Of a stretch of DNA of 64,000 nucleotides, positions 1-40,209 are shown one piece after another. This DNA is from a virus (taxonomy: Duplodnaviria; Heunggongvirae; Uroviricota; Caudoviricetes). Where the stretch lies: the IMG/VR virus record IMGVR_UViG_3300013121_000002, positions 43,976-107,975 of that record, one strand, 5' to 3'. The notes beneath the pieces were generated by a model that was not told where the DNA came from, did not search any database, and worked only from the letters and a program-made list of their open reading frames with translations. Every line of letters begins with the position of its first letter. Within the stretch, counting starts at the first letter, position 1. A program made the position numbers and the translations under genes.

Positions 1-3000
1 ATCAGCGTGCCCCGAGGCGTTGAACACCTCGCCACCAAGCCGCACCTCATACGGATCGTAGGTGACGCGAATTGTGTTGGGAGGGAAGTTCAGGTTCTCG
101 GCAGTGTCGTAGGCCACTGCCCAGACGATTGCTGCCCACTCAGCATCCCGCTTGGACGGGAACGGTCCAGCGTAGTCGTTACGATAATGAAGAAAGACCG
201 ATTCAGTGCTGTACGCGTCGATAGTGCCGCCGTTCGCCCGGAAGAACTCCAAGGAGTGCCGGTTGTCGAACACCGGCTTGGTTTCGCCGCCCGCGGGGCC
301 GAACGTGAACCGGCCGTTGGACGGGTCGTGGTTCGGGTTGAACTTGAACGCGTTGGTACTGGTCGGATCGAACCCACCATCATTGCGATCCGCCGACTTA
401 ATGTTGCGCGGATCGAATACGACGTAGGTCGGATGCTGTCCTGACGAAAAATCGTTAGCGACCACGCCGTCATAGCCCGAGCGACGCGCAGCATCCATGA
501 GCCGATTCCAGCGATTGCGCTCGGGATGCCTGAAATCAACATCCAGATTGTAGAGCGCCCCCGCATCCAGAAACTCAAAAATCGTCATCGGCTCGCCCGA
601 CTGCGGGTCGATCCAATCATCGTAGTTGGAAGCGAAGTCGTTCAAGAACTCGCGGTTCTCCTGCGCGTAAGGATCAGTCAGGTCGAGGAGCTTTTCGCTC
701 TTGAGGTAGAATGCCCTCGGTTCGGTGCCTGCCGCCGCGTAATAGGCCGCGTCCTCGCGGCTCGGCGTAAACCAATTGGAGCCCTCAGCAAAATCAGTGA
801 AATCTCCACCCTGCGCTTCACCCCGGTAGACGACAAGCGGATTGCCATTTGCATCCACCACCTTGCTGTTGCCGAACCACGCCTTGAAAGCAGCGCTGCT
901 GGTCACACCACCATCGCCAGCGGCGCTGCGTCCGTCCGCTGTCGCGAAGCGCCCGCGCTCGTCGTGATAGGGGTTGAACTTCGTGACCTCCTCGCCGTCC
1001 ACGAACAAGATAATGAAAACGGTCTGGTAGTCGGCCTTGCGCGCCCCGGCAGCGATGAGGTTGGACATATCCGGGCGCTGGTCGAGCGGGAACACCTCGG
1101 TGATCCACTCCGGGCGGATCGTGCCCTTGAAGCGGAACGCGTGCTGGCCCCCGGAAAGCTCATCCGCGCGAGCGCTCACACGCCACGCGTCCAGCGGAAT
1201 GCGCGCCTCGACGATGACCGGCTCGCTGTTCGACATCTCAGCCACGGCGGTCGCAAAGCGCGCGGCGTTGTTCCACGAGGTCGAGAGGAACACCGACGCC
1301 CGGCGCTCCTCGATCAGCGCCTCGCCCTCCTCCTCGTTCCCGATAACCTGCTGCCTGATCCACTCCTCGGGATCGGGGAAGCCGTTCTTGATCGCCCACT
1401 CGTCAGCGCCGGGTCCGCCCTTCGGCTTGATGCCGTTCGCCTTGATGCTGGCGACCGCCTTGGCGGCAGTGCCGTGCCAGAGCGTGAATGCCTGCGCGGC
1501 GTCGCCCTCGTGGCGCTCACCGTCAGCAACACCCGACCGGCCGTCCGCCGTGGCGAAGCGTCCGCGCTCATCGTGGTACGGGTTGAATTTGGTTATGACC
1601 CAATCACCAGCGCTCTTGTCGAACGTCATTTCCATGCTGGCGGTCTGATCTCCCCTACGCGGGAAGGCGATGGTGTCCACCTCGTGCCCCGGCACAAAAT
1701 CAAAGCCGAACCGCTGGTACACCGGGTAGGAACCGCCAATCGCAAACAGCTTCACACGCTCGACCCCGCGCGCCCGCAATCTGCCGAGAGCCCTACGCAT
1801 CAGCGCCTGCCCGGCACCCGGCGACACAGACCCCAGATAATCAATTGATGCAGTGCGCCCATCAATCGATGCAGATAGGGCAGCAGTCACACTCGCCGGA
1901 TCATCACTGTCGTAGAACGCAAACAACTCCCCGTTGGAGTGAGACAGCGATCCACGATCTTGAGCGACGACGTTTTCCAGCATCGCCAAGCTGGCACGGT
2001 GGCGATCCAGCCGCTCCCACTCCGCGTTAACAATATCCTGCTTGCGGTCGGTCCCGACCCACTCAAACCGACGACGCTCCTTGAACGCCTCGAACTCCTT
2101 TTCCGCTTGACGGTATTCGTTACTGAAACGCTCGTAGAGATCGTCAAGCTGCTCCTCGGTGAAGGGCGATCTGAAAATGCCACCACCATCCGCAGCCGCA
2201 CTACGCCCGCCCGGAGCTTCGGAGAACCGTCCGCGCTCGTCATGGTAGGGATTGAACTTGGTGAGGTCGGGGTCATTCGGATCGAACGTGCCCCGGTTGC
2301 CGATAGCCGATTTGATTTGCGTCGGCTCCAGCGCGACCCACACCGTCTGGTTGGCAAGCTCACGCGACGAGTCACGCCCCTGCCGGAACACGATGCCGTC
2401 GTAGCCCTCCGAGGCCAGCCACGCCCGAAGCTCTCCGGTCGAGCCCCTGCCGATTGGGCGCAGCCAAGTACCGGCCGTACCCTCGGGATCACGGCCAGCC
2501 GTCGAGTGCATCATGCTAATAAATTCGTCGAAATCGGCAGGCTCCCACGGGTTCTGGATCGACAGGAAGGCCGGGTACATTGTCCCGGTGCTGGCGTACA
2601 TGCCCGCGCCTTCCTTATCCGGCCGGTCGCTGAACCACGAGCCCACCGTATCCATGCCCTCGGGCCGACCGACCTGCGTGACCGAAGCCATGCGGTCGAA
2701 CACGGTGAAGTCGCCGAGCGCGCGGTCGCCCTCCTGCCAAACGTGCGTGTTGTGGTAGACGACGAGCGGGTTGCCCTCGGCGTCCACGACCTTGCTGTCC
2801 TTGAACCACGCCTTGAACTCGGGCGTCTGCACCTGTTCCCCACCACCGGCCGGGCTCCAGCGCCCGCGCTCGTCACGCGGCTGGTTGGGATCGTATTTGG
2901 TTACGCTGTCGTCCCAACCCCACTCTTGGAAGCTGTCGCCGGACGTAAACAATTCACGGGCAGGCACCTTGCGCACCGCAATGGCAAAGTTGCCTCCGAG

Positions 3001-4083
3001 GGTAGCGTTGCCGTGCTCAATCGCGTACTGCCGGGTGATCGCAACCCAATCGCCCGAATTGATGTGCTTCGCACTCACGTCGTGGTAGCTGCGCTTCTCC
3101 CACGGGATCGCCCGGTACACCCACACGCCGCGATCCGGCTTGCCCTGCAAGCTCCTGATCTTGTCGTAGGCTTCCCAATCGGACGTATCGCCCGTGCCGT
3201 AGTAGCGCATTCCCTCCGGGCTGTAGAAATCGGCCGGGTAGGTGCCGTTGAGCGTCACATCGTAGATCGGCGAACCGCTCTCGTGATCCGGCGCGGTGTG
3301 TGCGCCACGATAATCATTCTCACCGTCCGCCGCAGCGCTGGCACCGTCTGCGGTAGCGAAACGACCGCGCTCGTCATGGTAGGGATTGAACTTCTCGACC
3401 GACCCGTCGCACAGGAGCACGACGTAGAACACGCCGTCCTCGGCCTTGCGCAGCGGCACCTCAGTGAAGTTGCGCACATCCTGCAACGTCGCGCCGTTCG
3501 GCAGTCGTTCCGGCGCAGGAAACACCAGACGGCTCTCGATCCACTCGGGTGGGATCGAACGATTGAGCGTGCGCAGCGCACCCCAGCCCAGCATCTCATC
3601 ACGAGTGAACGATTCACGTTCGGACAGCGGCACCCTGATCTTGAGGACTAGTGGCTCAACCGAATCGAAGTCGCCTTCCTCACGGAACCTGCGGCTCGTA
3701 GCCTCGCGCGCCGCCGTCTGTGCCCAATGAAGTGCGTCGGCGGGCTCTGATGCAACGAACACCGAGTTAACGCGCCCGTTGTCACGGAAGAAGCTGTCAT
3801 CCCAATTCCGCTGTGGCGGCGTAGTCAGCAGACCTTCCTTGGTGATCCGGTCGAGCACCGACGCCGCCGTCCCGTGGTACACGAGAAAGCTCTTTCCGGC
3901 GACGAGCACCGGCACATCGGAAATGAACTGTCGAGGAAGGAACTCGTTGTTGCTTGTCCAGCGCCCATTGAGGTCGCGTGGCTGGTTCGGATCGTACTTG
4001 GTGAGATCGACGTAAATGAAATGCCGCTGGCGACCATCCGCCAGCGGCGTCGAGCCGAGGAGCTTCGCGACCGGGCTATTCAT
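1..4083 (-). CDS. Giant modular polyvalent virion protein (MuF-position minor head/injected protein). C-terminus is truncated by the window start, so the protein is >1360 aa. Contains several ADP-ribosyltransferase-like modules (H-G-T motifs of PARP/diphtheria-toxin type) and a GNAT acetyltransferase module, separated by a repeated KFNPYHDERGRF linker.
   Basis: Minus-strand frame is open from an ATG at ~4083 to position 1. The ATG overlaps the portal stop (ATGAATAG). The ORF track lists no minus-strand ORF/stop in this frame. The long plus-strand ORFs 526..1848 and 1939..3651 are Arg/Leu-rich antisense artefacts. Hand translation of 1681-2265 gives a GNAT motif (SPGAGQALMRRALGRLRARGVERVKL...YQRFGF). 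1381-1530 gives FTLWHGTAAKAVASIKANGIKP, which is PARP-like (LLWHGS...GILSQGLRIAP). 3871-3960 gives FLVYHGTAASVLDRITKEGLL. Seven in-frame copies of (T/E)K(F/Y)(N/D)P(Y/N)(H/Q)(D/P)xxGR(F/W) sit at ~4000, 3390, 2900, 2255, 1590, 980 and 330. Confidence 0.7.
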   Translation of the reverse strand, partial: MNSPVAKLLGSTPLADGRQRHFIYVDLTKYDPNQPRDLNGRWTSNNEFLPRQFISDVPVLVAGKSFLVYHGTAASVLDRITKEGLLTTPPQRNWDDSFFRDNGRVNSVFVASEPADALHWAQTAAREATSRRFREEGDFDSVEPLVLKIRVPLSERESFTRDEMLGWGALRTLNRSIPPEWIESRLVFPAPERLPNGATLQDVRNFTEVPLRKAEDGVFYVVLLCDGSVEKFNPYHDERGRFATADGASAAADGENDYRGAHTAPDHESGSPIYDVTLNGTYPADFYSPEGMRYYGTGDTSDWEAYDKIRSLQGKPDRGVWVYRAIPWEKRSYHDVSAKHINSGDWVAITRQYAIEHGNATLGGNFAIAVRKVPARELFTSGDSFQEWGWDDSVTKYDPNQPRDERGRWSPAGGGEQVQTPEFKAWFKDSKVVDAEGNPLVVYHNTHVWQEGDRALGDFTVFDRMASVTQVGRPEGMDTVGSWFSDRPDKEGAGMYASTGTMYPAFLSIQNPWEPADFDEFISMMHSTAGRDPEGTAGTWLRPIGRGSTGELRAWLASEGYDGIVFRQGRDSSRELANQTVWVALEPTQIKSAIGNRGTFDPNDPDLTKFNPYHDERGRFSEAPGGRSAAADGGGIFRSPFTEEQLDDLYERFSNEYRQAEKEFEAFKERRRFEWVGTDRKQDIVNAEWERLDRHRASLAMLENVVAQDRGSLSHSNGELFAFYDSDDPASVTAALSASIDGRTASIDYLGSVSPGAGQALMRRALGRLRARGVERVKLFAIGGSYPVYQRFGFDFVPGHEVDTIAFPRRGDQTASMEMTFDKSAGDWVITKFNPYHDERGRFATADGRSGVADGERHEGDAAQAFTLWHGTAAKAVASIKANGIKPKGGPGADEWAIKNGFPDPEEWIRQQVIGNEEEGEALIEERRASVFLSTSWNNAARFATAVAEMSNSEPVIVEARIPLDAWRVSARADELSGGQHAFRFKGTIRPEWITEVFPLDQRPDMSNLIAAGARKADYQTVFIILFVDGEEVTKFNPYHDERGRFATADGRSAAGDGGVTSSAAFKAWFGNSKVVDANGNPLVVYRGEAQGGDFTDFAEGSNWFTPSREDAAYYAAAGTEPRAFYLKSEKLLDLTDPYAQENREFLNDFASNYDDWIDPQSGEPMTIFEFLDAGALYNLDVDFRHPERNRWNRLMDAARRSGYDGVVANDFSSGQHPTYVVFDPRNIKSADRNDGGFDPTSTNAFKFNPNHDPSNGRFTFGPAGGETKPVFDNRHSLEFFRANGGTIDAYSTESVFLHYRNDYAGPFPSKRDAEWAAIVWAVAYDTAENLNFPPNTIRVTYDPYEVRLGGEVFNASGHAD

Positions 4084-5704
4084 CAACGGCCACCACGAAC
4101 TGCGTGCGGCCACCTTCCTGCATCTGCTCCTGCGCCAGCCTGATCGCCTTGGCGAGGAGAGCCGCCTTCTCAGCAGCGGGCTCCTTCTCCGCCTTGCCGG
4201 GTGCCTTGTTGTCCCCGGTGCCGTTCATCATCGCCGTGATCTTCGCCTCGCGCTCGGCGACCGTAGCAGCATCGACCGAGCCGGGCGGCGGGATGCCCAT
4301 CGACTGGTTGCGCAGCAGAGCCAGTTCCTCCTCGCTGCGCTCGGGCTGGCGCGACACGCCGAGGAGATCGCGCACGTCGTCGATCACCGGATCGTCCGGG
4401 CTCAGCACCGCACCCGCCGTCGCCATGTCGCGTAGCGCCGCCGTCACCTCGGCCACGTCCTTGAACGTCACGTCCTCGGGAACGAACGTCGGCTTGAGCG
4501 CATCGTCGAAGCCATTGAGCTTCCACAGCGGGATGAGAATGTCCCGGTCGAACGCAGCGGCGATGTTGTCGAGCACGGCGTTCGCGATCAGGTACAGGTT
4601 CCGGCTCTTGTCCACCGCGAGCGCACGGTTGCCGCCCTGATCGCCCATCATCAACGATTCGGTGCCGAGGATGCGCGCCATTTCACGCTGAAGCCGGTCG
4701 ATGGCGACGTTCAGTTCGGCGAGGCCAGCGCCGTTGCCCTGCAACAGGTCGATGCCCCACTGCATCGCCCCGGCGATCTTGAGCCCGTCCGCCGCCTGCG
4801 ACTGGTAGGGCACGCTGTCGAGCACGAGCGACGTGTCGCTCTGCTTCATTTCGAGTTGGACAAAATTCTTGAGGTCGTCGATCAGGCCCTGCGCCTGATC
4901 CTTGGTCAGCTTGCCGTCCTTGACCATCTGCTGGAGCAGGCTGATCGGAGCCCGGCCAATCGGCGTGCCGCGCAGGTCGCGCTCGAACGCACGCGCCTCC
5001 AGTTCGAGGTAGGTCTTGAAACGCTCGTAGGGCTCGGCGAGGTGACGGAACATCCCCAGCCCCTCCGGGCTGTCAGTCAGCGTGTCCTCGACGAGGTAGA
5101 CGAGCTTGCCACGCGGCAGGCCGAGCACGACGCCGGTCATCGGGTGCCGCTGCCACACGCCGGTCACGACACCGTTCTCATCGACCTCCCAGCGATCCAC
5201 CGTGTGCTGCGGGCGACCCTCGATGTCGGCGAAACCAATCTGGCCGTCGTCCCGCTTCTTGGCGGTCCACTCCTGCAAACCAAATCCATGGAAACGATAC
5301 ATGCCCGCGCGGCGCACAATGCGCGGCCACGTCGTCGCCATGTCATGCATCACGTCCTCAACGAACTGCGCCGCCTTCTCCGCTTCAGGCGACACCTTGC
5401 CATCGACCTCGGCAGGCTTCACCGTCCACTGCGGGTGACCGAGCAGGTTGAGAAAATGATGAACCGAGGCGGCGACGATACTGACGTTCGTCGCGATCTC
5501 GGATGCCGTGCGGTACTTCTCGGTGCCGGTCCATTTGGACGACCGCTCGAATGTGCGAACCAGTCCGCCATAGATGGCGGTGCCGCCCGTACCCATTTCC
5601 TTGAACGGTGCGATCCGCGGCACCGTCTGGCCGGTAACGGCAGTCAGCACGCGCTTGAGCAAGCTCGGCGGACGAACGATGGAATCGCTCACCTTGGCGT
5701 CCAT
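4076..5704 (-). CDS. Portal protein (putative)
   Basis: 542-aa ORF sits between the terminase large subunit and the MuF-position polyvalent protein. Size and acidic C-terminus are typical of portals. The call rests on synteny and size only. Confidence 0.55.
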   Translation of the reverse strand: MDAKVSDSIVRPPSLLKRVLTAVTGQTVPRIAPFKEMGTGGTAIYGGLVRTFERSSKWTGTEKYRTASEIATNVSIVAASVHHFLNLLGHPQWTVKPAEVDGKVSPEAEKAAQFVEDVMHDMATTWPRIVRRAGMYRFHGFGLQEWTAKKRDDGQIGFADIEGRPQHTVDRWEVDENGVVTGVWQRHPMTGVVLGLPRGKLVYLVEDTLTDSPEGLGMFRHLAEPYERFKTYLELEARAFERDLRGTPIGRAPISLLQQMVKDGKLTKDQAQGLIDDLKNFVQLEMKQSDTSLVLDSVPYQSQAADGLKIAGAMQWGIDLLQGNGAGLAELNVAIDRLQREMARILGTESLMMGDQGGNRALAVDKSRNLYLIANAVLDNIAAAFDRDILIPLWKLNGFDDALKPTFVPEDVTFKDVAEVTAALRDMATAGAVLSPDDPVIDDVRDLLGVSRQPERSEEELALLRNQSMGIPPPGSVDAATVAEREAKITAMMNGTGDNKAPGKAEKEPAAEKAALLAKAIRLAQEQMQEGGRTQFVVAVDE

Positions 5705-5778: not shown

Positions 5779-6243
5779 TCAGCCGTCGTCGAGGACTGCC
5801 CCCAGCAGATTGTCCTGCATCACGACGGCGATAATCTGCGCCGCCAGCCTGCCAATCGTCACGTCACGGTGGGCTGCCTCGTCGGCGAGGCTCGTCCAGA
5901 CGCTCTGCTGCACCTTCAGCACCACCTTGCGCTCGGTGTGCTTCGACACCTTGGCTCGCGGATCGCCGCGGTGCCGCGCCTCGAACACGATAGTCCGAAC
6001 GCCCGCACGCGTGATCCCTGAAACGAGGTTGGTGATCTCGCGACTGGTCAGTCCTTTCGCCCACAGATCGAGGATGCGTTCGTCACGCTCGCGCCGACTG
6101 AACGGTGCGCGTCGCCGAACCACCGCTCCATTGATTGCTTCCACCCCCGCCACTCCAATCATCGGTTCGGGCGCAGAACAATTGGGCCGTAAATGCCAAC
6201 CAGCGGTTCGTCGATGTCGTGCCACGGGAAGAACGACATGCAC
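5779..6243 (-). CDS. Small HTH-domain protein (start possibly internal, ~6160)
   Basis: Helix-turn-helix-like segment RILDLWAKGLTSREITNLVSGITRAGVRTIV. The ORF overlaps the 3' end of the terminase gene, so the true start is likely downstream. Confidence 0.3.
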   Translation of the reverse strand: MHVVLPVARHRRTAGWHLRPNCSAPEPMIGVAGVEAINGAVVRRRAPFSRRERDERILDLWAKGLTSREITNLVSGITRAGVRTIVFEARHRGDPRAKVSKHTERKVVLKVQQSVWTSLADEAAHRDVTIGRLAAQIIAVVMQDNLLGAVLDDG

Positions 6244-7940
6244 ACGGCATCGCCGAGGTTGGGCGACTTCGTTCCTTCAGGCGTCTTGTCCACCACCAGC
6301 TTCATCGTGCGCGTGTCACGCGTGATGATCGGCTGGCTGAGTTCAGTCTGGAGCTTGCGGATCAGCGGCAGAGTTGACGGTAACGAAATCAGATTGTCGG
6401 ACGGCGCGGTGAAACCGGGCTCGGTGATACAGCGATGCGTCAACTCGAAACGACGGCGCAACGACCACCACGCCTGCGCCTTGAGATTGTAATAAAAGTT
6501 CTTGTTGATCGGGCTCTGCGGATCACCGTCCACCACACGGTCGAACGGATCGAGCGGCTGGGCACTGGCGAACCACGGCGTCAGGATCAGTCCCTTCGGC
6601 AGCAGACCCTCATCGCGCAGCCGATTCGCTTCCGCCTTGACGCCAGCGCCGACACCAATGGCGTCGTACTGGAGGTTCAGCGGCAGCGTGTCCTCACACG
6701 CTGCTACAGCGCGACGCGTCGTCCGGCCGGTGTCCCGCTCACCCCACTCATCCACAAGCCGCAGGATCGAGCCCTGCCGCTTGGCAAGCGCATTCGTGTC
6801 CAGTCCCTGATCGGCCACGTCGAGGCCAGCGAACCATGCGCCAGTCTGGTCGAAGCCGGGAATGCGCAGGTGGGCATCGAGCGCCGACTGAACCCACGCT
6901 GCCGGGATGATGACACCCTCGGCAGCACCGGCATAGTCACGTTCCGTCTCGCGGGCGAACACATGCGCCATGCCAGCGTTCTCGAAAAACTCCTTGCGCT
7001 GCTGATGCCACGTCCCCGTCTTGAGCGGGTGATCGCTCCAGTCGAGAACAAACACGTTCGTCTTGAATTTGATTACTGGCTTGTCCGGCACCCAATCGAC
7101 GCCAGCCTGACGCTTGCGCCAGAACACCGTACCGAGGCCGGACACCGACGAAATGTCGATGCGCACACGCGTGTTCTCAGACAGCGCCGCTTCAACCGCC
7201 TCGGGCCGTTCGAGGTGAGCCGCCTCGTCAACGAAATAGACGAGCGTGCGACCGCCGCGGCCGATGTTGTCGCCAAGCTCGCCAGAGATCGTCGAGCCGT
7301 TCGGCAGGTTGAGGCAGCGCATGTAGAACAGGTGCTTCGACTCATCGAACCCATCGGGCTTGAGGAAGTCGGGCAGCCCGCGAATCAGCATCCGTATTTT
7401 CTCAAAGATGCTGTTGGGGTCGCCGAGCTTGTCCACCTGCTCCTGTTTGTTCGAGCCCCACCCGATAGCCGCGCCGGGCCAGAACAGCCACAGCCATACG
7501 GTAATCGCCGCGCAGACCCACGTCGCGCCCATGTCGCGCGACTTCTCGATCAGCCCACCCGCCTCGCCAAAGATGCACGCCAGCACGAAGCGAACCAGTT
7601 CCTCCTGACGAGGGAACAGGATCAGCGGAAAGCGCGCTGGCTTTCCTAACGAAATGTTGCGCGGGTCGTAGGTATCGCACCAGTGATTGATGAACCGGAT
7701 GCACCCATCGACACCGTTGGCGTAGTAGGCTCGGGCAGACGGGATCGACGCCGGATTGAGTTCGAGCCGGGCCAGCGTGCGCTCACGCCACGCGGCGACA
7801 CCGACATAGTCGGGCGGCCATTGATCCTTCGGGCAGGTAGCCGGGGCAGTGACGTTGACCTGACCGCGCTCCTCCAGCTTCTTGAGCCGTAGCTGCCCAA
7901 GCGCCGGGGTGAAATCGACCTGTGAGCGCGGGTCGTTCAT
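6159..7940 (-). CDS. terL: Terminase large subunit (TerL)
   Basis: 593 aa. P-loop-like GEAGGLIEKSRDMGATW. Walker B/coupling motif LVYFVDEAAH. The C-terminal half is acidic and nuclease-like. Position is upstream of the portal gene. Confidence 0.85.
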   Translation of the reverse strand: MNDPRSQVDFTPALGQLRLKKLEERGQVNVTAPATCPKDQWPPDYVGVAAWRERTLARLELNPASIPSARAYYANGVDGCIRFINHWCDTYDPRNISLGKPARFPLILFPRQEELVRFVLACIFGEAGGLIEKSRDMGATWVCAAITVWLWLFWPGAAIGWGSNKQEQVDKLGDPNSIFEKIRMLIRGLPDFLKPDGFDESKHLFYMRCLNLPNGSTISGELGDNIGRGGRTLVYFVDEAAHLERPEAVEAALSENTRVRIDISSVSGLGTVFWRKRQAGVDWVPDKPVIKFKTNVFVLDWSDHPLKTGTWHQQRKEFFENAGMAHVFARETERDYAGAAEGVIIPAAWVQSALDAHLRIPGFDQTGAWFAGLDVADQGLDTNALAKRQGSILRLVDEWGERDTGRTTRRAVAACEDTLPLNLQYDAIGVGAGVKAEANRLRDEGLLPKGLILTPWFASAQPLDPFDRVVDGDPQSPINKNFYYNLKAQAWWSLRRRFELTHRCITEPGFTAPSDNLISLPSTLPLIRKLQTELSQPIITRDTRTMKLVVDKTPEGTKSPNLGDAVCMSFFPWHDIDEPLVGIYGPIVLRPNR

Positions 7941-9761: not shown

Positions 9762-10328
9762 TTAGTTCAGTTGCGTCGTCGCGGGCTCTGGCGGCGGCTC
9801 GATGTCGGCTCCGGGAATATCGTCATAATCCTCCAGCCAGACGACGCGATCAGCCTCGGCGATGAACGAGATCATGGTGTCAAGGGTCTGGCGGGCTGCA
9901 TGACCGCGAACCGGCTGGGTGGCCCTGTCCGCATCCTCGTCCTCCAGCCACTCGAACTGGGATTCGGGATCGACCGGCTTGATGTCCTCGGGCGCGCTGA
10001 CCTCCTCGTAGTCCGGGTCGCCATAGACCACGGCGAGGCTGACGAGCAGTTTGATGAGTTCGTCGGTGTTGTTGCGGACGTTCCACAGGCCGACCGCGGC
10101 TTCCTCGCTCAGCATGATCGGGCCGGTGACGCCACAGGCTTCACAGGCCACGGCGTAATTCTGGCTGACCAACTTCACCTTGGCGGCGCTGTGATCGCAA
10201 AACGGACAGGGACGCAGTTCGCTGTCAACCATCGTCATCCTCGCTCCGCACGCGCGTGAGGGTTCGGTTGCTGTGAATGAGGAGAAGCCCGCGGTCGTCC
10301 TCGACGACGTAGCGAGCCTGTCCGTCAC
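9762..10328 (-). CDS. Lar-family restriction alleviation-like protein (likely true start ~10238) fused to an acidic C-terminal tail
   Basis: MTMVDSELRPCPFCDHSAAKVKLVSQNYAVACEACGVTGPIMLSEEAAVGLWN matches the Lar zinc-ribbon pattern CPFCG...C..C..GP....EA...WN. Confidence 0.6.
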   Translation of the reverse strand: MTDRLATSSRTTAGFSSFTATEPSRACGARMTMVDSELRPCPFCDHSAAKVKLVSQNYAVACEACGVTGPIMLSEEAAVGLWNVRNNTDELIKLLVSLAVVYGDPDYEEVSAPEDIKPVDPESQFEWLEDEDADRATQPVRGHAARQTLDTMISFIAEADRVVWLEDYDDIPGADIEPPPEPATTQLN

Positions 10329-10754: not shown

Positions 10755-11396
10755 TTAAACGAACAGGCCCTTGGGCGGTCGCCGGATCGGCGCGGACGGG
10801 ATGCGCCGGGTAATCGGATTGCCCTCGGCGTCGAACAGTTCCGCCTGATCGCCGAGGCTGATCCAGCCCGGAGCACCGCTGCGGGCGAACAGTTCGAGGT
10901 AGGGTCCGGGGACCAGTTCGACGATCCTGTCGCGCACCTCATCCGGCTTGCGGGAGTGCTCGCGCAGCGGCGAGACGATGAGGCGGCGGACGCTGGCGCT
11001 CTGACGCTCCGGGGAACCGCGCGTGGCGAGCAGGCAGAGTTCCGGGTTGGCTCTGGTCCAGTAGCCCATGCCGACGAAAAAGTCCGCGAGGTCGCGCGGC
11101 TTCTTGTTCAGCTTCACCCAATGGAACGCAATCGTCTTGTAAACGAAACCCCACGATGCGATCAGGTCGAACGCCTGCGGCAGGTGGGTATCCGGCACCC
11201 ACAGGAACAACACGCTGTCATCGAGCGCCATGTCGCCGACCGGGAGCGCCTTGATGTCGGCAAAGCTCATCGTGTCGTAGTGCGCCTGCGGGGCGCGGCC
11301 TTCACCGTCCTCGCTGTACGTCTCGAAATGCCACGGAGGATCGACCAACAGCGCCCCGGCTTTGACGCGGCGGCGTGCTAACGAAATGACGTTCAC
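10755..11396 (-). CDS. MT-A70-family N6-adenine DNA methyltransferase
   Basis: DPPW catalytic motif (LLVDPPWHF). LFLWV motif. REHSRKPDE motif, typical of phage Dam/MT-A70 methylases. Confidence 0.8.
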   Translation of the reverse strand: MNVISLARRRVKAGALLVDPPWHFETYSEDGEGRAPQAHYDTMSFADIKALPVGDMALDDSVLFLWVPDTHLPQAFDLIASWGFVYKTIAFHWVKLNKKPRDLADFFVGMGYWTRANPELCLLATRGSPERQSASVRRLIVSPLREHSRKPDEVRDRIVELVPGPYLELFARSGAPGWISLGDQAELFDAEGNPITRRIPSAPIRRPPKGLFV

Positions 11397-16401: not shown

Positions 16402-16911
16402 TTAGCTCCCGACCGGCCGCGCCCAATTCTGGCCTAGCTGTATTTTAGAGATCATAGCCTGCGTCACACCAAACCGCTCTGCCAACTCGCGCTGGAAAAC
16501 CTTACCACGCAGCAAACGAATTTGACAAACATCAGTCTCGGTTAGCTTAGCGTTACCGTTTAGCTCACCTCGCCCAAGAGTTCCATGCAGGCCCCGATCA
16601 GCATGGTTTTCTTTTGAGGTTGCCCAACGCAGATGCCACGGATTCACACAACCAGCAGCACCACGTCCACAGCTATGAGCCGCCTGATGCTTCGGCATCG
16701 GTGGTTCGCCATGAACCGAAATGCAAACGAGACGATGAACGTACTTCATCATCCCAGCGACCTTCAATACCCCGTAACCCTTCACACGCGCAAACGGCCA
16801 GATCAGGCAGTCATCCCCCTGATAAGGAAGCACCACCGTTTGGAAGTAATGATTACGCGCCGACTTCCTAGCCACCTTCAACCTATTCGTATTTAGGACG
16901 CGGTGGAGCAA
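16402..16911 (-). CDS. HNH homing-type endonuclease with a C-terminal HTH
   Basis: CLIW...GYG...HRLVC...AAHSCGRGAAGCVNPWHLRWATSKENHADR. HTH GNAKLTETDVCQIRLLRG...FGVTQAMISKI. Confidence 0.85.
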   Translation of the reverse strand: MLHRVLNTNRLKVARKSARNHYFQTVVLPYQGDDCLIWPFARVKGYGVLKVAGMMKYVHRLVCISVHGEPPMPKHQAAHSCGRGAAGCVNPWHLRWATSKENHADRGLHGTLGRGELNGNAKLTETDVCQIRLLRGKVFQRELAERFGVTQAMISKIQLGQNWARPVGS

Positions 16912-17944
16912 ACGCTAACGAAATGCTATCCCACACCGCTGTCGTCACAACGTGTACCCGCTCCAATTCCGCATTACGTTCAGGGCCGGATGGCATCTCG
17001 TCGAGCTTCTTGATGAACGCATCAACCTTGGCTTCGGTCAGCCCCAAATCCTTGAGCCTACCCACGTCAGTCAGCCAATCAAGGCTGGCAACGTAGTCGT
17101 CTATGCCGTAAGCAAAACGAATGTTGAAGTCGCATTCAAGGAACGGCGTGTTGACCTTGTTCTTCTTCGCCTTGGCCTTGACCTGAATGCCGGTGACCCG
17201 CTTCACCTTGTTGATCGTCCGCGTCAACTGCTTGAGATGAGCCAGCCAGACAATATGCGTGGCGTAGAAATCAAGCGCCTTGCCGCCCGTCCGGGTGTGC
17301 TTCTCGCCCATCGTGAAGCCGATCTTGTCACGGACCTGCGAGATCACCATGACGTGAATTTTGGTCGCACCCAACTCGCGTATCAGCTTGCGAAACAATT
17401 CGCCCATCATCTTCGGCTTCTCACCGCCGAAGGTCGCCTCGCCAACCTTGCGCGCCATTTCCGCATCCGACGAAATGGCATCCAGCGAATCAATGATGTA
17501 GAGGCCGGGCTGACCCGATTCCTTGGCCTGTTCAATACAAGCCATCATGTCGTTGAACACATCCTCGACGGTATCCCACCGCGAGCCCACGCCCTCCGGG
17601 CCGAAGTCCACTCGATCCACTGGCAGACCGAGCGTAACGGCGTAGCCCTCATCGAACGCCGCTTCAGCTTCGCGATACCAGATATGCCCATCAGGAAACT
17701 GCCGGGCGAAGTTTGCCGTCGCTTCGATGGCGAGGAGTGTCTTGCCGCTCGAACGGTCACCGACGATGTTCGAGACGCGACCAAGCGGCCAACCACCGCC
17801 GAGGACACAATCGAGCAGGGTGCATCCGGTGCGAATGAATTGCAGCGGCTCCTGCTTGAAATAGATCGGAACCAGCTTCTCCTCTGGCTCCTCGACCGCC
17901 ACCTTCTTGCGCGCCACCATCAATGTCCCCTGACTGCAAACCAA
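16883..17944 (-). CDS. RecA-superfamily recombination ATPase (Sak4/RadA/KaiC-like)
   Basis: Walker A VGDRSSGKTLLA. Walker B LYIIDSLDAI. RecA-fold L2-like region. Confidence 0.75.
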   Translation of the reverse strand: MVCSQGTLMVARKKVAVEEPEEKLVPIYFKQEPLQFIRTGCTLLDCVLGGGWPLGRVSNIVGDRSSGKTLLAIEATANFARQFPDGHIWYREAEAAFDEGYAVTLGLPVDRVDFGPEGVGSRWDTVEDVFNDMMACIEQAKESGQPGLYIIDSLDAISSDAEMARKVGEATFGGEKPKMMGELFRKLIRELGATKIHVMVISQVRDKIGFTMGEKHTRTGGKALDFYATHIVWLAHLKQLTRTINKVKRVTGIQVKAKAKKNKVNTPFLECDFNIRFAYGIDDYVASLDWLTDVGRLKDLGLTEAKVDAFIKKLDEMPSGPERNAELERVHVVTTAVWDSISLAFAPPRPKYE

Positions 17945-23805: not shown

Positions 23806-24936
23806 CTACGACGACACCGCTACGAGGAACAACCAATCGTCACCGCCACGCATCACGGCGGCCGATGATCCAAACGCAAACGAATCAGCCTCGCTCAGTG
23901 CGCCCAGCACCTCGGCAGCATTCAGCTTGATCGTCAACGGCGGCCATTCACCAGCCAGCTTGAACTGCTCGGCAAGATCGCCGGTCGAGTAGTTACCGAC
24001 CATCCGCAAGAGTGTGGGATCATCCGCCGCCACCGCAAACGAAACAAAAGGATCAGCGCCGTTGGCAACGATCACCGCCCGCGACAGGGCTTCGTCCAGT
24101 CCATCAGGCAGCGCCAGAAACGACGATAATTTGTTTGCCTCGGCCACCTTGTTGCGGACCAGCTTGGGAAGCTCGTGCATGGTCGAGACATCAAGCCGAT
24201 TGTGGAAGAACTCAACGCCCGCCGTCGTCGCCACCAAGCACTTTGACGGAAAGTACAGCCGGTCGCCGGGCTCGCACTCCTCGGCGACGCTCTCAGCGAA
24301 CAGCCGTGACAGCACGGTTGGGGCAATCTCGGGCACCACATCCATCGCCACCCGGATTTCCATGAGCGTTTTGGAGTCCGTCGTATAGAGCGCGACGCCG
24401 CCCTTGATCGGGAACAGCGACACGCCACGGTGCTCGACCTGATCCGTCGTGCCACGCTGCCTGAGCTTGAGCACGCGCTTGAGCGCAGACAAGAACTCCT
24501 CGGTCAATTCGAGGCTGGTCGAGGTGTCGTACTGCTTGGGGAACTGCCAGTAGAAGCGCGATAGCGGTCGCGTCGCAAGCGAGGACCGTGAGCGGGCGAA
24601 GCGAACGATCAGATCATCATTCGCTTGGTTCAAACGAACGTCGCCAGCCTTGCTCGATTGCACCAACCCGGCGAACACCAAACCATCGACACCGCAGTTC
24701 AAGCCGGTGTCGAACACGACCCGGACGCCGAAATCGCCATTGTAGGCTGACAGGTGCGTCCCGGTAAACCAAAACTGACCCAATTCCCGAGCGAGTGGAC
24801 CTTTGGTGCCTAGTGCAGGCATAGCCAACTCGACGACGCGTGTGAGAATTTCACGAGGGAACTTACCGCCCGGCTCGACCGACGATTTCGTTTCCTCGAC
24901 GCGCCTGCGCACCGCAGCTTCGACCATCACAACCAC
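23806..24936 (-). CDS. DNA polymerase sliding clamp (beta-like), putative
   Basis: 376 aa, three-domain size class. Sits between the polA and clamp-loader neighbourhood. No strong motif, so this is a synteny/size call. Confidence 0.4.
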   Translation of the reverse strand: MVVMVEAAVRRRVEETKSSVEPGGKFPREILTRVVELAMPALGTKGPLARELGQFWFTGTHLSAYNGDFGVRVVFDTGLNCGVDGLVFAGLVQSSKAGDVRLNQANDDLIVRFARSRSSLATRPLSRFYWQFPKQYDTSTSLELTEEFLSALKRVLKLRQRGTTDQVEHRGVSLFPIKGGVALYTTDSKTLMEIRVAMDVVPEIAPTVLSRLFAESVAEECEPGDRLYFPSKCLVATTAGVEFFHNRLDVSTMHELPKLVRNKVAEANKLSSFLALPDGLDEALSRAVIVANGADPFVSFAVAADDPTLLRMVGNYSTGDLAEQFKLAGEWPPLTIKLNAAEVLGALSEADSFAFGSSAAVMRGGDDWLFLVAVSS

Positions 24937-25030: not shown

Positions 25031-26113
25031 TTAGCGACCGCTGGTAGCGACCTCGATGTGGCCGTTGTGACGGAACCACCAGAGAAACTGCCGCGAAACA
25101 CCACTCGCGAGCGCGTCGCTCACCTTCATGCCCTTGCGGAGCTTCGCGAACTCGTTGAAGCGATCCGAGCCGTCGCGATACGGATTTCCCTTCACGACGA
25201 TCTTGAGCTTCGCGTTGTCCGGGAAGTCGGTCGCCTTCCGTCCGCGCTTGCCGCCAGTCGGCAACGCCGTTGCAGCCTTGCGGGCCGGGGCCTTCGCAAC
25301 AGCAGCCGCCTTGCCGCGGGCCGGGGCCTTCGCAGCGGCCTTCGCAGGGGCCTTCGCCGCAGCCTTGCCGCGGGCCGGGGCCTTCGCAGCAGCAGCAGCC
25401 TTGCCGCGGGCCGGGGCCTTCGCGGCGGCCTTCGCAGGAACCTTCGCAGCAGCCTTCGCCGGGGCCTTCGCAGCGGCCTTCGCAGGAGCCTTCGCAGCGG
25501 CGGCCTTGCCACGGGCCGGGGCCTTCGCGGCGGCAGCAGCCTTGCCGCGGGCCGGGGCCTTCGCGGCGGCAGCAGCCTTGCCACGGGCCGGGGCCTTCGC
25601 AGCGGCCTTCGCGGCGGCCTTCGCAGGGGCCTTCGGTGCAGCAGGGGCCTTCGGTGCAGCAGCCTTCGCAGCCCGCGGAGCACGCTTCGGGGCCGTCGTC
25701 TCGACCTCCGTAGTCACAGTCGCATCCATAGTTCCAACTCCTTCTGCGGACGATCCAGCATCAGCATCGACCGCGGTTACATCATCAGCACCACCTCCCG
25801 TCTCCTCGACTTCAGCAGCACCAGTTTCCTGCCCGGCATCGCCGGGCTCGTCAGCAACGATCCGCCCGGAACCAACAGGCACCTCGTCGGGGAAAGCCGG
25901 AAGCGGCGTATTCCCGGACGACTTCTTGTTGTCCTCGACCACGTCTGTCGCCGCATTCAACCACTCCTGCGCCTCGCGGCTCAGTGTTTTCCATGCGTCG
26001 TCGTCGATGATCTGACCTGCGCTGAAAATGCGGAGCTTCAACGCCTGATCCGTCTCCCCGTCCTTGCGCTCAATCTTGAGCTTCGACAGGAACTCACCAA
26101 GCAAAGCACTCAT
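25031..26113 (-). CDS. Histone H1-like / AlgP-like Ala-Lys repeat DNA-binding protein with globular N- and C-terminal domains
   Basis: The central ~140 aa are made of KAAAKAPARGKAAAAA-type repeats. The C-terminal part KLKIVVKGNPYRDGSDRFNEFAKLRKGMKVSDALASG is globular. Confidence 0.6.
   Translation of the reverse strand: MSALLGEFLSKLKIERKDGETDQALKLRIFSAGQIIDDDAWKTLSREAQEWLNAATDVVEDNKKSSGNTPLPAFPDEVPVGSGRIVADEPGDAGQETGAAEVEETGGGADDVTAVDADAGSSAEGVGTMDATVTTEVETTAPKRAPRAAKAAAPKAPAAPKAPAKAAAKAAAKAPARGKAAAAAKAPARGKAAAAAKAPARGKAAAAKAPAKAAAKAPAKAAAKVPAKAAAKAPARGKAAAAAKAPARGKAAAKAPAKAAAKAPARGKAAAVAKAPARKAATALPTGGKRGRKATDFPDNAKLKIVVKGNPYRDGSDRFNEFAKLRKGMKVSDALASGVSRQFLWWFRHNGHIEVATSGR
25260..25690. repeat. 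Coding tandem repeats (Ala/Lys-rich, about 36-48-bp units)
   Basis: Repeated gccttcgcagcggccttcgcaggggccttcgc-like units. Confidence 0.65.
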
Positions 26114-33462: not shown

Positions 33463-34740
33463 GTGAGGGGTGCTAGGCTCCCCTCACCTTTCCCCCAAGC
33501 GGATTTGAACGAAATGACGCAGCAAGTCGCGCGAATCGAGAACCTTCCGAAGCTCATCGAACAGGCCGCCAACACGCTGGCGCAAGCCACGAACTACGCG
33601 CAGGTACTCGATGCCCACAAGAAGGCGACTGTGGCCTACGACGCCGCCAAGCTGGCTGCCCGGCTGGCCGACAAGAAAGACGCTTACGACAAGATCATCG
33701 CTGCCTGCCGCAAGGTGCAGGCTGATGCGCTGGTGATCGCGGCGCAGGCTGAAATCCGCCTCGCTGACGAATACGACGCCGCCAAGGCGCGAGGTGAAGT
33801 TGCCGGTCATGGTGGTGGTCGAAATTTCAAGAGGGATAACGCCCCGCTTGAAAAAACAAAGCTCGCAGACATTGGCCTGACCCCGAAGCAGATGAGCGAT
33901 GCCCGCGCCGTCCGTGACGCCGAGAAGGCCGATCCGGGTGTTGTCGAGCGCACCGTGCGCAAGCGCATATCCGAAGGACATGAGCCCACCAAGGCTGCCG
34001 TCAAGCAGGCGGTGAAGGCCACCAACACCCACAAGCCGGTGGAACGCAAGCGCGCCTCCGTAGAGCGCAAGCGCAGCACCCCCGAGCCCGACAAAAAGCA
34101 GGAGCCAAACGTGGCGACCACCTCCGTCAACAACAGAATGAATATCGACCTCACGGTGTGGGCGCGCTTCGTTGAACTTGCAAAGAAACTGAACACGAAC
34201 GCAGCCGATCTGAGCGGTAGGATCGTTACAGAGTTCACCGACAAGGGTGAGCCCGAGATCGACGCGACCACGTTGTCCATGTCGGCACAACAGAAGCTCG
34301 AAACTGCCATCCGCCAGCACAAGCGCAAGCTCGACGAGAGCTTCGCCGAGGCTGTCCGGCTTGCCCTCGTGGCCGAGCGCGACCAATTCCTCGGCGACAC
34401 CATCAAGCGTTTGCAGGAGCGCGAGCGCCACGCCAACGCCGTCCTCCACAACAACGCCGGGATCATGCCGCGTTCCGAGTTCCGGCTGATCCTCGCTGCG
34501 CTGAGCCCGGATTCGCGCCGCAATTTCTCTGACGAAAGGATCGCTGCGGCGTTCAACGCGTTCAAGCAGTACGAACCAATTCTGGTAGCCCGAGCCAAGG
34601 ACGATCCGCTGCCGACAATCACGCCTGCTGATCTGACAGCCATGCGCGCTGCCGCCGAAGCTGCCCGCAAGGCCAAGCGGAAGTCGTCGGCGGAAGCGAA
34701 GGCCAACAAAGCTAACGGCAGCAGCGTTAGTGTGTCCTGA
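33463..34740 (+). CDS. Hypothetical Ala/Lys-rich coiled-coil protein (start possibly at Met 33514)
   Basis: 425-aa ORF. The antisense ORFs in this region are Arg-rich artefacts. Confidence 0.5.
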   Translation: MRGARLPSPFPQADLNEMTQQVARIENLPKLIEQAANTLAQATNYAQVLDAHKKATVAYDAAKLAARLADKKDAYDKIIAACRKVQADALVIAAQAEIRLADEYDAAKARGEVAGHGGGRNFKRDNAPLEKTKLADIGLTPKQMSDARAVRDAEKADPGVVERTVRKRISEGHEPTKAAVKQAVKATNTHKPVERKRASVERKRSTPEPDKKQEPNVATTSVNNRMNIDLTVWARFVELAKKLNTNAADLSGRIVTEFTDKGEPEIDATTLSMSAQQKLETAIRQHKRKLDESFAEAVRLALVAERDQFLGDTIKRLQERERHANAVLHNNAGIMPRSEFRLILAALSPDSRRNFSDERIAAAFNAFKQYEPILVARAKDDPLPTITPADLTAMRAAAEAARKAKRKSSAEAKANKANGSSVSVS

Positions 34741-37181: not shown

Positions 37182-38000
37182 TTGAAGTTCGACAACTCCC
37201 TGTTCCTGACCCGCGAGGTCGAACGTGACCTCCTCGTGCGCGCCAAGGCAGGAGATCGGGCGGCGCGCGACCGGCTGGTTCTCGCCCATCGGCCGCAGGT
37301 GATTGGCGCGGCGCGCAAGTTTGCCCGCGTCTACCCCACCATCGACATCGACGATCTCATATCCGAGGGGAACATCGGGTTGATGGCGGCGATCCGGTCA
37401 TTCGACATGGAACAGACCGTGCGCTTCGCGACCTACGCCGTGTACCACATCGGCAACCGGGTCCGGGATTTCATCCTCCGCAACGCAGCGCACGGCGTCA
37501 GCTTCGCGGGCACCACGGCGACGCGGGCGCTGTTTTTCAAATCGCGGATGCTGCTGATGAATGAGTCGGCATCGGGTCGGCCGCTCGCTGAGCAATATCA
37601 GCGGGTCGCTAACAAGCTCGGCGTCACGGTGCGACAGCTAACCGACTTCCTGAACTTCGGCACGTCGTCGCTCGACGCCCCACCACCGGGTGGCACCGGG
37701 GAAGCTGCTCTTTCCTCGGTCGGTGAACTGCTCGTCGATGCAACGGCACCCGACCCGGAGGAGCACACTGACGAGAGCCAGCGGGCGAAGCTGTTGCACG
37801 ACGCTCTGAACCGGCTGGAGCCGCGCGACCGGCTGGTGCTGATCTCGCGCTTCATGAACAACGAGACGCTGGAAGGTGCCGCCGCCACCCTGAAGGTGAC
37901 GCGCGAACGCGTGCGCCAGATCGAGAGTCGGGCACTGCGGCGACTGAAGGATTTGCTGATTGATTTGCAGCCGGAACCGGAACGCACCGCGGCCGAATAA
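37182..38000 (+). CDS. Sigma-70 family RNA polymerase sigma factor
   Basis: Region 2: DDLISEGNIGLMAAIRSFD. Region 4 HTH: TLEGAAATLKVTRERVRQIESRALRRLK. Confidence 0.8.
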   Translation: MKFDNSLFLTREVERDLLVRAKAGDRAARDRLVLAHRPQVIGAARKFARVYPTIDIDDLISEGNIGLMAAIRSFDMEQTVRFATYAVYHIGNRVRDFILRNAAHGVSFAGTTATRALFFKSRMLLMNESASGRPLAEQYQRVANKLGVTVRQLTDFLNFGTSSLDAPPPGGTGEAALSSVGELLVDATAPDPEEHTDESQRAKLLHDALNRLEPRDRLVLISRFMNNETLEGAAATLKVTRERVRQIESRALRRLKDLLIDLQPEPERTAAE

Positions 38001-38239: not shown

Positions 38240-38272
38240 GGGGCGGGAACCAGTTTCCCGCCCCTTTCGTTT
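38240..38272 (+). terminator. Rho-independent terminator
   Basis: GGGGCGGGAA-CCAG-UUUCCCGCCCC followed by UUUCGUUU. Confidence 0.55.
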
Positions 38273-40208: not shown

Positions 40209-40209
40209 C

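Follow-up and report, generated by a model that had tools for sequence, protein, structure and literature searches.

The element described here is a giant gene that lies directly behind the portal gene of a tailed phage, in a stretch of 64,000 nucleotides (IMG/VR record IMGVR_UViG_3300013121_000002, positions 43,976 to 107,975; this whole stretch is referred to below as the window). Its product, which we take to be a protein of 2764 amino acids, is built of a 29-residue leader and 11 globular modules of about 150-460 residues, with a junction peptide of one and the same kind standing ahead of each module. A single chain thus holds up to five modules resembling ADP-ribosyltransferases (ARTs), drawn from three families, together with a GNAT-like module and four zincin-like modules. 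The explanation that we regard as probable is that of a polyvalent multi-effector protein, which would enter the head in association with the portal, be cut at its junctions, be ejected with the DNA and modify the host early in infection.

The gene is read on the minus strand, where translation of positions 1-4083 gives a frame free of stops and frameshifts across 1361 codons, from 4083 down to the window edge. The preliminary description of this DNA, made from the sequence alone, had proposed just such an open frame of more than 1360 residues, and this length can now be refined. An exhaustive HMMER search with the module at the window edge (module G, see below) as the query retrieved the missing C-terminus in the form of P0059, a protein of 2764 residues called by the Joint Genome Institute (JGI/IMG), encoded on a single contig of 107,975 bp and identical to the window frame over all 1361 residues. 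On this identity P0059 is taken here as the full-length protein, of which the window (1..4083) would hold the N-terminal half, the other 1403 residues lying beyond its edge. The frame has a GC content of 0.77 at third codon positions (GC3) and of 0.48 at second positions (GC2), which is a coding signature, and the chance of so long an open frame arising at 62% GC is negligible, about e^-40 as estimated from base composition.

Upstream, and on the same strand, lie the genes for the portal protein (542 residues, 4076..5704; Pfam Portal_Mu, E 1.5e-17; PHROG 113, E 5.1e-46) and the terminase large subunit (593 residues, 6159..7940; PHROG 2, E 5e-20), and these matches bear out the order of terminase, portal and giant gene that had been noted earlier. 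The ATG of the giant gene at 4083 overlaps the stop codon of the portal gene (TAG, 4078-4076) within GATGAATAG, and the two genes are probably transcribed together and translationally coupled. A programmed frameshift fusing the portal to its cargo was also considered; it would need a +1 shift at GATGAATAG, where we saw no supporting feature, and the overlap is taken as translational coupling. The same place bears on a more trivial explanation, in which the gene is misassembled or decaying, or is the product of a sequencing error that split a portal-cargo fusion, since related phages do have the fused form and a single-base shift at GATGAATAG would join the two frames. We consider it extremely unlikely, given that 2764 codons are open, that the identical protein was called independently by JGI, that the domain matches are strong and GC3 is of the coding type, and that the split form, a 542-residue portal gene overlapped by a giant one, also occurs in two of the related phages discussed below (L036 and L037).

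The borders of the modules were set by a regular expression for the repeated linker. The repeated unit is about 25 residues long and reads (hydrophobic)-x-K-[FY]-[ND]-P-x-[HQ]-[DP]-x(2-4)-G-R-[FW], followed by a tether rich in Gly, Ala and Asp. The full protein has 11 copies of the motif, seven of them within the window, and none was found elsewhere in the six-frame translation of the window. The first copy, YDPNQPRDLNGRW (residues 30-42, 3958..3996; all coordinates within the giant gene are on the minus strand), follows directly on the leader MNSPVAKLLGSTPLADGRQRHFIYVDLTK (3997..4083). The exact core FNPYHDERGRF is present as the second (residues 232-242, 3358..3390), fourth (610-620, 2224..2256), fifth (833-843, 1555..1587) and sixth copies (1036-1046, 946..978), and variants of it as the third, YDPNQPRDERGRW (397-409, 2857..2895), and the seventh, FNPNHDPSNGRF (1248-1259, 307..342). 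Disorder is predicted from the middle of the motif through the tether, with a predicted local distance difference test score (pLDDT) below 50 at residues 837-862 (model residues 217-242 of the model of modules D and E described below).

The four FNPYHDERGRF cores differ from one another at 2-6 of 33 nucleotides, and every change is synonymous and at a third codon position. As all differences among the cores are synonymous, and the paralogous modules to either side are just 25-31% identical, the junction peptide is under strong purifying selection. A recent duplication of DNA as the source of the repeats was ruled out by the same two observations, the synonymous differences and the 25-31% identity of the modules.

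The chain joins at least two disparate activities, namely two ART-PolyVal domains, two Tpt1-like ARTs, a GNAT fold, four HExxH modules and a DUF7178 domain, and it is encoded by a phage in a place adjoining virion genes. It is thus, with high confidence, a polyvalent protein of the class described in phages in 2017, in which 2-15 disparate domains are found per chain (PMC5512222, Iyer, Burroughs, Anand, de Souza & Aravind 2017); the kind has been known since then, and this protein is a new member of it. In that class, the ART-PolyVal domain (H-Y-D, Tox-ART-HYD2 clade) is the commonest enzymatic domain, present in 1-12 copies, one GNAT family typically adjoins an ART, zincin-like peptidases have been proposed to process the chains, and the polyvalent proteins of phages are encoded among virion genes (PMC5512222). 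The likeness to its members, such as a Pseudomonas prophage protein with 12 ART copies, extends to the huge chain of unrelated enzymes, the several ART-PolyVal domains, the GNAT beside an ART, the modules of zincin type and the location at the head genes. What sets the present protein apart is an unusual set of modules (two minimal ARTs similar to Tpt1 and DarT, module B and three tandem paralogous HExxH modules), the lack of a MuF domain, and a regular layout with one junction peptide per module, which is not described in PMC5512222.

The preliminary description had placed the gene where MuF-like, head-packaged polyvalent proteins sit. The position does fit the polyvalent class beside virion genes, but Pfam found no MuF domain (PF04233) anywhere in the 2764 residues, those encoded in the window included, and the anchor to be considered in this lineage is the portal itself. 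The composition of the protein, suspected from the outset to be unusual, proved to be so: the best relative among 5.8 billion proteins extends over at most 30% of the window part and the best phage record over at most 31%, and a phmmer search with the whole protein against the PDB gave no match. LPD, DdrB-ParB, kinase and Zeta domains are present in the relatives found in the databases.

The firmest assignments are those of module C (residues 410-609, 2257..2856) and module F (residues 1047-1247, 343..945). Both match the Pfam family ART-PolyVal (PF18760) in two stretches, with an E-value of 4.5e-31 and 108.9 bits against a cut-off of 31.2, the best stretch being residues 434-600 in module C, and they are 31% identical to each other (BLASTP, E 7.6e-16). 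They correspond to the two paralogous modules that had been recognized by a start of the form FKAWF..SKVVDA.GNPLVVY(H/R), located at residues 423 and 1066, and can now be named as ART-PolyVal domains, the only canonical, above-threshold ARTs in the window part. At the signature position, 38 of 46 sampled ART-PolyVal motifs have a His and four an Arg. Module C keeps the family His (VVYHNT), and module F has the Arg (VVYRGE, where the family motif reads VVYHGT), a substitution also found in P0006, P0007 and P0016; module F may therefore be an inactive domain or one with an altered chemistry. ART-PolyVal domains are predicted to act on proteins (PMC5512222).

Modules A (residues 43-231, 3391..3957) and E (residues 844-1035, 979..1554) are paralogues of each other (25% identity, E 3e-10 by BLASTP), and contain the two strings with an H-G-T signature that had been singled out before, FLVYHGTAASVLDRITKEGLL (residues 66-86) and FTLWHGTAAKAVASIKANGIKP (residues 865-886). 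The two modules had been read as ARTs akin to PARP and diphtheria toxin. The ART fold stands, and the family resemblance shifts, as the H-G-T modules are closer to the ART lobe of Tpt1/KptA and DarT than to PARP or diphtheria toxin. A profile of six sequences of the H-G-T family (A1), compared with the PDB, gave Tpt1/KptA (8.5e-4 and weaker), cholix toxin (0.017) and DarT (0.056), all 13 of the best matches having the ART fold, and the Tpt1 alignments span the H-G-T start and a C-terminal strand of the form IPPEWI/IPSKYI. An alignment of 15 sequences of the family shows the H and the G to be invariant and the T nearly so, and an aromatic residue is present within 'SVF/Y'.

Structure prediction points in the same direction. 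In an AlphaFold2 model of modules D and E, made from an alignment of 15 rows that covers E and having a mean pLDDT of 67.5, the core of module E reaches block means of 78-96. Compared with the PDB by Foldseek, this module matches Tpt1 (8tg4_A, E 1.4e-3, probability 1.00), many further KptA and Tpt1 entries and DarT1 (8baq, E 1.7e-2), the probabilities for Tpt1, KptA and DarT1 being 0.99-1.00, and the whole model of D and E matches essentially two kinds of structure, Tpt1/KptA/DarT1 and GNAT. Modules A and E are therefore best described as minimal Tpt1/KptA/DarT-like ART folds, an assignment supported by the modelled fold and not one of membership in the Tpt1 family. They share with the Tpt1 ART lobe the H-G-T strand and helix at the start, a second strand of the 'VFLS' type and the C-terminal 'IPPEWI' strand, and differ from Tpt1/KptA in the absence of the N-terminal lobe, which in that family carries the Arg-His-Arg part of the catalytic tetrad, and in their context, a chain linked to virion genes rather than RNA repair. 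Because of the Tpt1/DarT-like fold, the ends or bases of nucleic acids are plausible substrates.

Further members of the family of modules A and E are found within other giant proteins that bear the linker (P0007, P0008, P0009 and P0040) and as stand-alone proteins of 105-267 residues, one of which is called Tpt1/KptA-family by JGI, another having a Pfam PARP match. The free-standing protein P0050 (133 residues, found on 25 contigs and named Tpt1/KptA-family protein by JGI), consists of a leader, the peptide FNPNHGPDGRF and an H-G-T module, so that a single unit of tag plus module exists as an independent gene.

Between these ART modules lie two of a different character. Module D (residues 621-832, 1588..2223) begins with a long helical hairpin of 90 residues, followed by a core of moderate confidence (pLDDT block means of 61-87 in the AlphaFold2 model) in which the GNAT motif proposed earlier was found at residues 756-793, as GAGQALMRRALGRLRARG...YQRFGF. 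Its top four Pfam matches are all GNAT families (E 6.6e-4 to 0.08) and all fall on the motif A/B segment, where SPGAGQALMRRAL...YQRFGF aligns to motifs A and B of the Pfam models. The structures matched by Foldseek are likewise GNATs (3f0a, E 1.7e-3; 3fix; 9cr5; GCN5 5trm; 1vhs), these at a probability of 0.98-1.00 and the GNAT matches as a whole mostly at 0.9-1.0, and the predicted fold supports module D as a GNAT-fold acetyltransferase-like domain. With profile and fold matches to both ART and GNAT, the modules are not unrelated to these folds, the outcome that the preliminary description had named as its possible undoing. No sequence relative of module D was found by a word-indexed search of the 5.8 billion proteins; the search for homologues of D and E together returned a linker match only, and jackhmmer with the core of D over the collected proteins returned the query alone.

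Module B (residues 243-396, 2896..3357) is a conserved domain matching PHROG 2579 (E 9.7e-28), whose label, 'ParB C-terminal domain', probably stems from the fusion partners of its members. It is widespread, being present in other polyvalent proteins and, among the tblastn matches listed, in Mycobacterium and Vibrio phages, and six aligned sequences share 22 invariant columns. Its model has a pLDDT of 77.4 and a predicted template modelling score (pTM) of 0.73. We found no Pfam match, no PDB match by sequence profile and nothing significant by Foldseek; the matches to ART folds are low-scoring, and weakly suggest a fifth, divergent ART-like module. The group considered for it was that of the R-S-E ARTs (Alt/VIP2/C3-like), which are defined by an Arg on strand 1, a Ser-Thr-Ser and a catalytic Glu. 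An alignment of modules A and B together (A2) was discarded, since in it MAFFT had placed the C-terminal half of each H-G-T fragment over module B.

The second half of the protein, as read from P0059, is dominated by modules with an HExxH motif: G (residues 1260-1524, 265 residues, HEIMH at 1385), H (1536-1756, HEITH at 1621), I (1768-1994, HEIEH at 1867) and K (2479-2764, HEMAH at 2615). Modules G, H and I are paralogous and K is more distant, and in each of the four, some 90-100 residues after the HExxH, there follows a conserved helix of the form HETLAE(I/L)A or E-x-FA. On these motifs, we assign them as putative zincins. Module J (residues 2006-2467) matches DUF7178 (E 2.5e-24). Modules H to K lie wholly beyond the window. 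Of module G the window holds the first 102 residues (1..306), and its HEIMH is 24 residues past the edge. This fragment was compared with zincin starts by Smith-Waterman alignment with shuffles, whose best z, 3.0, was to other proteins, and with a small hidden Markov model of the region before HExxH, against which it scored -0.7 bits, equalled by 108 of 1000 shuffles; both tests were thus negative, and because HEIMH lies beyond the window edge they were of low power.

How such a chain could be connected to the head is best seen in the relatives of this phage. We collected 15 IMG/VR loci with portals 51-63% identical to that of the window. In seven of them the portal open reading frame continues far beyond the portal domain, to 2068 residues (L031) or 2084 residues (L032 and L034), or to the end of the contig, giving at least 1457 (L025), 876 (L028), 1646 (L030) and 1051 residues (L033); in another (L035) it is extended to 782. 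The phages with portals 57-62% identical have an in-frame fusion to a cargo of 1500 residues, with variants of the junction motif (KYNHYHGEHGYFAS, KYSEDQPRHPKGVAEGGRWS, YNAAQERDMRTGRWS) at the border between portal and cargo. L036 and L037 have a portal of 542 residues followed by an overlapping separate gene of 1330 residues, as in the window, the one in L036 with the variant YDPSEPRDERGRW near its N-terminus, and L026 and L027 have no giant gene. The cargo of these relatives is unrelated to that of the window, except for one H-G-T module in L025. The C-terminal 1500 residues of the fused form include a pyridine-nucleotide-disulfide oxidoreductase and a Zeta-toxin kinase (L031, 461-6664; L032, 9758-16009), and a second giant open reading frame in L032 (17100-21317, at least 1406 residues) carries an ART of the exoenzyme type (R-S-E), with a junction motif at residue 146. 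The closest isolates are Rhizobium phages (portal 51% identical) and Roseobacter phages of the RDJL type; in the Rhizobium phage, an ordinary MuF head-morphogenesis protein, free of the motif, is encoded downstream of the portal at a distance of a few genes. In this lineage, the position behind the portal gene is a hypervariable cargo slot, whose content is either fused to the C-terminus of the portal or encoded by a coupled downstream gene.

The wholesale exchange of cargo bears on the possibility that the giant protein is mainly a structural component, internal to the head or part of an ejection conduit, whose enzyme-like modules are degenerate scaffolds. Module F has indeed lost the family His, so that some modules may be inactive, which is also a point against our own explanation. 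We regard a structural role as improbable, since module C, at 108.9 bits, still has the His of the ART-PolyVal family, since the H-G-T residues, the segment resembling GNAT motif A and HExxH are all kept, and since a cargo wholly exchanged between related phages fits effectors under diversifying pressure rather than a conserved component of the virion structure.

The C-terminus of the portal faces the capsid interior, and the portal remains in the virion. A cargo fused to that terminus would therefore be inside the head, and could be delivered only if it were cut off. The junction unit is the likeliest place for recognition and cleavage, because it is the sole feature common to the borders between portal and cargo, MuF and cargo, cargo and cargo, and leader and cargo. 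Under the explanation that we favour, the giant protein would enter the procapsid through association with the portal, its own zincin-like modules or the prohead protease would cleave the chain in or close to the junction units, pieces of the size of single modules would leave with the DNA through portal and tail, and these would modify host macromolecules with NAD+ and acetyl-CoA at the onset of infection, in the service of host takeover or anti-defence. That the protein is packaged in the head and delivered we consider fairly likely, and that the junction unit is a cleavage site a real possibility, if somewhat short of an even one. Packaging, cleavage, ejection, catalytic activity and targets are what we infer, and the terms 'injected' and 'anti-defence', already used in the preliminary description, are taken from the class. 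There are precedents for parts of this scheme: ARTs, 2H and Nudix domains are found fused to MuF, to the portal and to the capsid-processing protease (PMC9503650), and ejection proteins of phage SPN3US are reported to be cut by the prohead protease (PMC7411985).

A number of observations weigh against this explanation or against the domain assignments on which it draws. True Tpt1 has an N-terminal RNA-binding lobe that carries part of the Arg-His-Arg-Arg catalytic tetrad, and modules A and E have no such lobe, because just about 25 residues precede the H-G-T in either, and there are stand-alone relatives of 105-148 residues. Their scores fall far under the family cut-offs, with 16.5 bits against 26.7 for the Pfam PARP model, 12.6 against 26 for Tpt1 in Pfam (PF01885) and 21 against 239 in NCBIfam (NF002014); the best Foldseek E-values are above 1e-3 throughout, with target-normalised TM-scores of 0.33-0.47, and the acidic residue (DE) present in A and E is unconserved across the family. 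The GNAT scores of module D are all under the cut-off as well, the best being Acetyltransf_9 with 20.1 bits against 25, and the HExxH modules gave no Pfam match and no significant match by profile in the PDB, where anthrax lethal factor had an E-value of 0.49. As for the junction, no residue of the motif resembles a known P1 determinant of a protease, Asp and Glu both being variable, and its place in small proteins, 8-30 residues from the N-terminus, would suit a targeting tag no less than a cleavage site. For polyvalent proteins as a class, packaging and injection are likewise predicted in the literature. Self-cleavage at an Asn-Pro or Asp-Pro bond was rejected as a mechanism, as the variants YSP, WDES, YNEK and YNHY are without those bonds.

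The distribution of the junction peptide in other viruses is relevant to both of the roles that may be given to it. Members of the motif family occur in a subset of the polyvalent proteins that we retrieved (P0006-9, P0013, P0018, P0034, P0037, P0038, P0040 and P0048). A query of 28 residues from a junction matched the end of the portal protein of Pro-Nvie1, a provirus of the archaeon Nitrososphaera (…EFNPYHDERGRFAS…), and, in another phage, the border between a portal domain and an appendage of 270 residues (…KYNPYHGEDGRFTS…). In Pro-Nvie1 (L001, FR725450.1), the gene at 2792-4204 encodes a Portal_Mu protein with EFNPYHDERGRFAS about 50 residues from its stop, and the next gene is annotated as RelA/SpoT-like; with the identical peptide in the portal of an archaeal provirus, the junction peptide spans viruses of bacteria and archaea. 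A back-translated pattern of the exact 11-mer found 19 IMG/VR loci, which are of three kinds. In some the motif follows a portal domain, near residue 430; in others it belongs to a small protein, where it lies 8-125 residues from the N-terminus and precedes cargo such as a glutamine-deamidase toxin or a zincin; in the rest it is part of a multi-module chain, and one such chain has a prohead protease of the XkdF type at its end. This last chain, a 937-residue open reading frame (L016, IMGVR_UViG_3300024272_000587), has the motif at residues 12 and 298, two repeated HNHP modules, a 2H phosphoesterase and the C-terminal protease, so that here it is the maturation protease to which the cargo is joined. 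A weaker tblastn match (E 0.5) led to Nocardia phage P3.1 (L022, MW582532.1), where a very basic protein of 236 residues (4989-5699) starts with MARRKFNPRQPRDLRGRWKS and has a variant of the motif at residues 6-18; its annotation as 'capsid maturation protease' looks doubtful.

The main rival role for the junction unit is that of docking or targeting, and the two roles may coexist. In its strict form, this alternative holds that the peptide is not cleaved, and is instead a head-targeting or docking tag that binds the portal, the scaffold, the capsid interior or the prohead protease; each unit of tag, tether and module would be recruited by it, and the protein would be packaged and ejected uncut or cut elsewhere. 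The exact motif close to the start of small proteins with a single cargo, as found on many viral contigs that are unrelated, speaks for it, as do the position right behind a short leader in the giant protein and in L036, which recalls an N-terminal capsid-targeting sequence, and the two aromatic positions and the Gly, which are invariant and would suit a small binding hairpin. Even so, the motif is kept where the cargo is already fused to portal or MuF and targeting is redundant, targeting does not need eleven copies per chain, and a cargo fused to a portal that is retained in the virion cannot be injected uncut. We therefore think that a tag that is never cut is rather unlikely.

Short tags and processing inside the prohead are both known from T4, whose internal proteins have an N-terminal capsid-targeting sequence, and we propose these tags and this processing as a functional analogy for the junction unit. 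T4 Alt offers a closer parallel at the level of the cargo, being an ADP-ribosyltransferase that is packaged in the head and injected with the DNA (PMC5512222, PMC9503650), as is proposed for the present protein; it differs in having a single R-S-E ART of another clade, in lacking a multi-module chain and in showing no sequence similarity to the junction motif. For the cleavage of a short motif there is the case of phage 80alpha, where an N-terminal motif of the capsid and scaffold proteins is cut at F|A by the host protease Prp (PMC5744158). There, too, a short conserved peptide stands on non-homologous virion proteins, and in the junction motif the final G-R-F/W precedes an A, S or T. In contrast, the 80alpha motif has another sequence, is cut by a host protease and is specific to Firmicutes, so that cleavage of the junction motif is suggested by analogy only.

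The kinds of cargo found in the relatives raise one more alternative, in which the protein is not packaged at all and acts late in the producing cell, or is a toxin-like polyprotein set free when the cell lyses, as MuF polymorphic toxins would be, its adjacency to the portal reflecting late co-expression only. Effectors borne by MuF proteins have been interpreted as inter-bacterial toxins (PMC5576092), and the related cargo does include a Zeta toxin, a glutamine deamidase and an exoenzyme-type ART. This alternative is quite unlikely, as the portal-fused cargo of close relatives would be physically inside the capsid, the phage has its own replication machinery, and no immunity-like small gene stands beside the giant gene within the window, its downstream side being beyond the window. 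The effectors fused to the portal, MuF or prohead protease (PMC9503650, PMC5576092) are similar to the present case in the link between a cargo and a protein of head assembly; here, the cargo has a gene of its own and no MuF, and the junction peptide is not mentioned in either source.

The rest of the window encodes a DNA polymerase, a clamp loader, a primase, two helicases, a UvsX-like recombinase and SbcCD, along with a sigma factor, two DNA methyltransferases and a Lar-like restriction-alleviation protein. This set of replication and recombination genes identifies it as part of a large phage genome, of at least 108 kb, and not of a bacterial chromosome; no near match to its DNA was found among phage records. 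The sigma factor (37182-38000, plus strand; PHROG 351, E 2e-39), the SbcCD-like nuclease pair (38271-41208, minus) and the UvsX-like recombinase (16883-17944, minus) indicate a phage that is largely self-sufficient. The Lar-like protein and the two methyltransferases (9762-10328, minus; 10755-11396, minus; 33463-34740, plus) are a second, conventional layer of anti-restriction in the same genome. Three long open reading frames of 346-376 residues (23806-24936, minus; 25031-26113, minus; 61505-62545, plus) have GC3 of the coding type, and at E 1e-5 none of them matches a PHROG.

So far, the junction peptide seems not to have been described: its motif strings were not found in 8 million searchable papers, and the literature also gave nothing relevant on a packaging or processing tag of this kind. 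Tentatively, and at less than even confidence, we suggest that the generalised unit, K-[FY]-[ND]-P-x-[HQ]-...-G-[RQ]-[FW]-[AST] plus a flexible tether, may be a general signal of tailed viruses of bacteria and archaea, which would mark the cargo internal to the head, link or tag effectors to the portal, MuF or the prohead protease, and be the site where the cargo is recognised and cut free in the capsid. If this is true, giant polyvalent proteins would in effect be polyproteins with a defined processing code.

Apart from the junction, the minimal Tpt1/DarT-like ART family, which is absent from Pfam, the widespread module B and the zincin-like family, also outside Pfam, deserve biochemistry. 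Polyvalent chains of 200-300 kDa were predicted in 2017 to be injected multi-effector weapons, and this locus is well suited to testing how they enter the capsid and leave via the tail: its 11 modules each stand behind the same peptide, relatives have portal-fused cargo, and unrelated bacterial and archaeal viruses have that peptide where portal and cargo meet. Should the peptide prove to be a code for processing or targeting, it would account for cargo delivery, it would make head-packaged effectors recognisable from sequence alone, and it would provide a handle for loading foreign proteins into phage heads.

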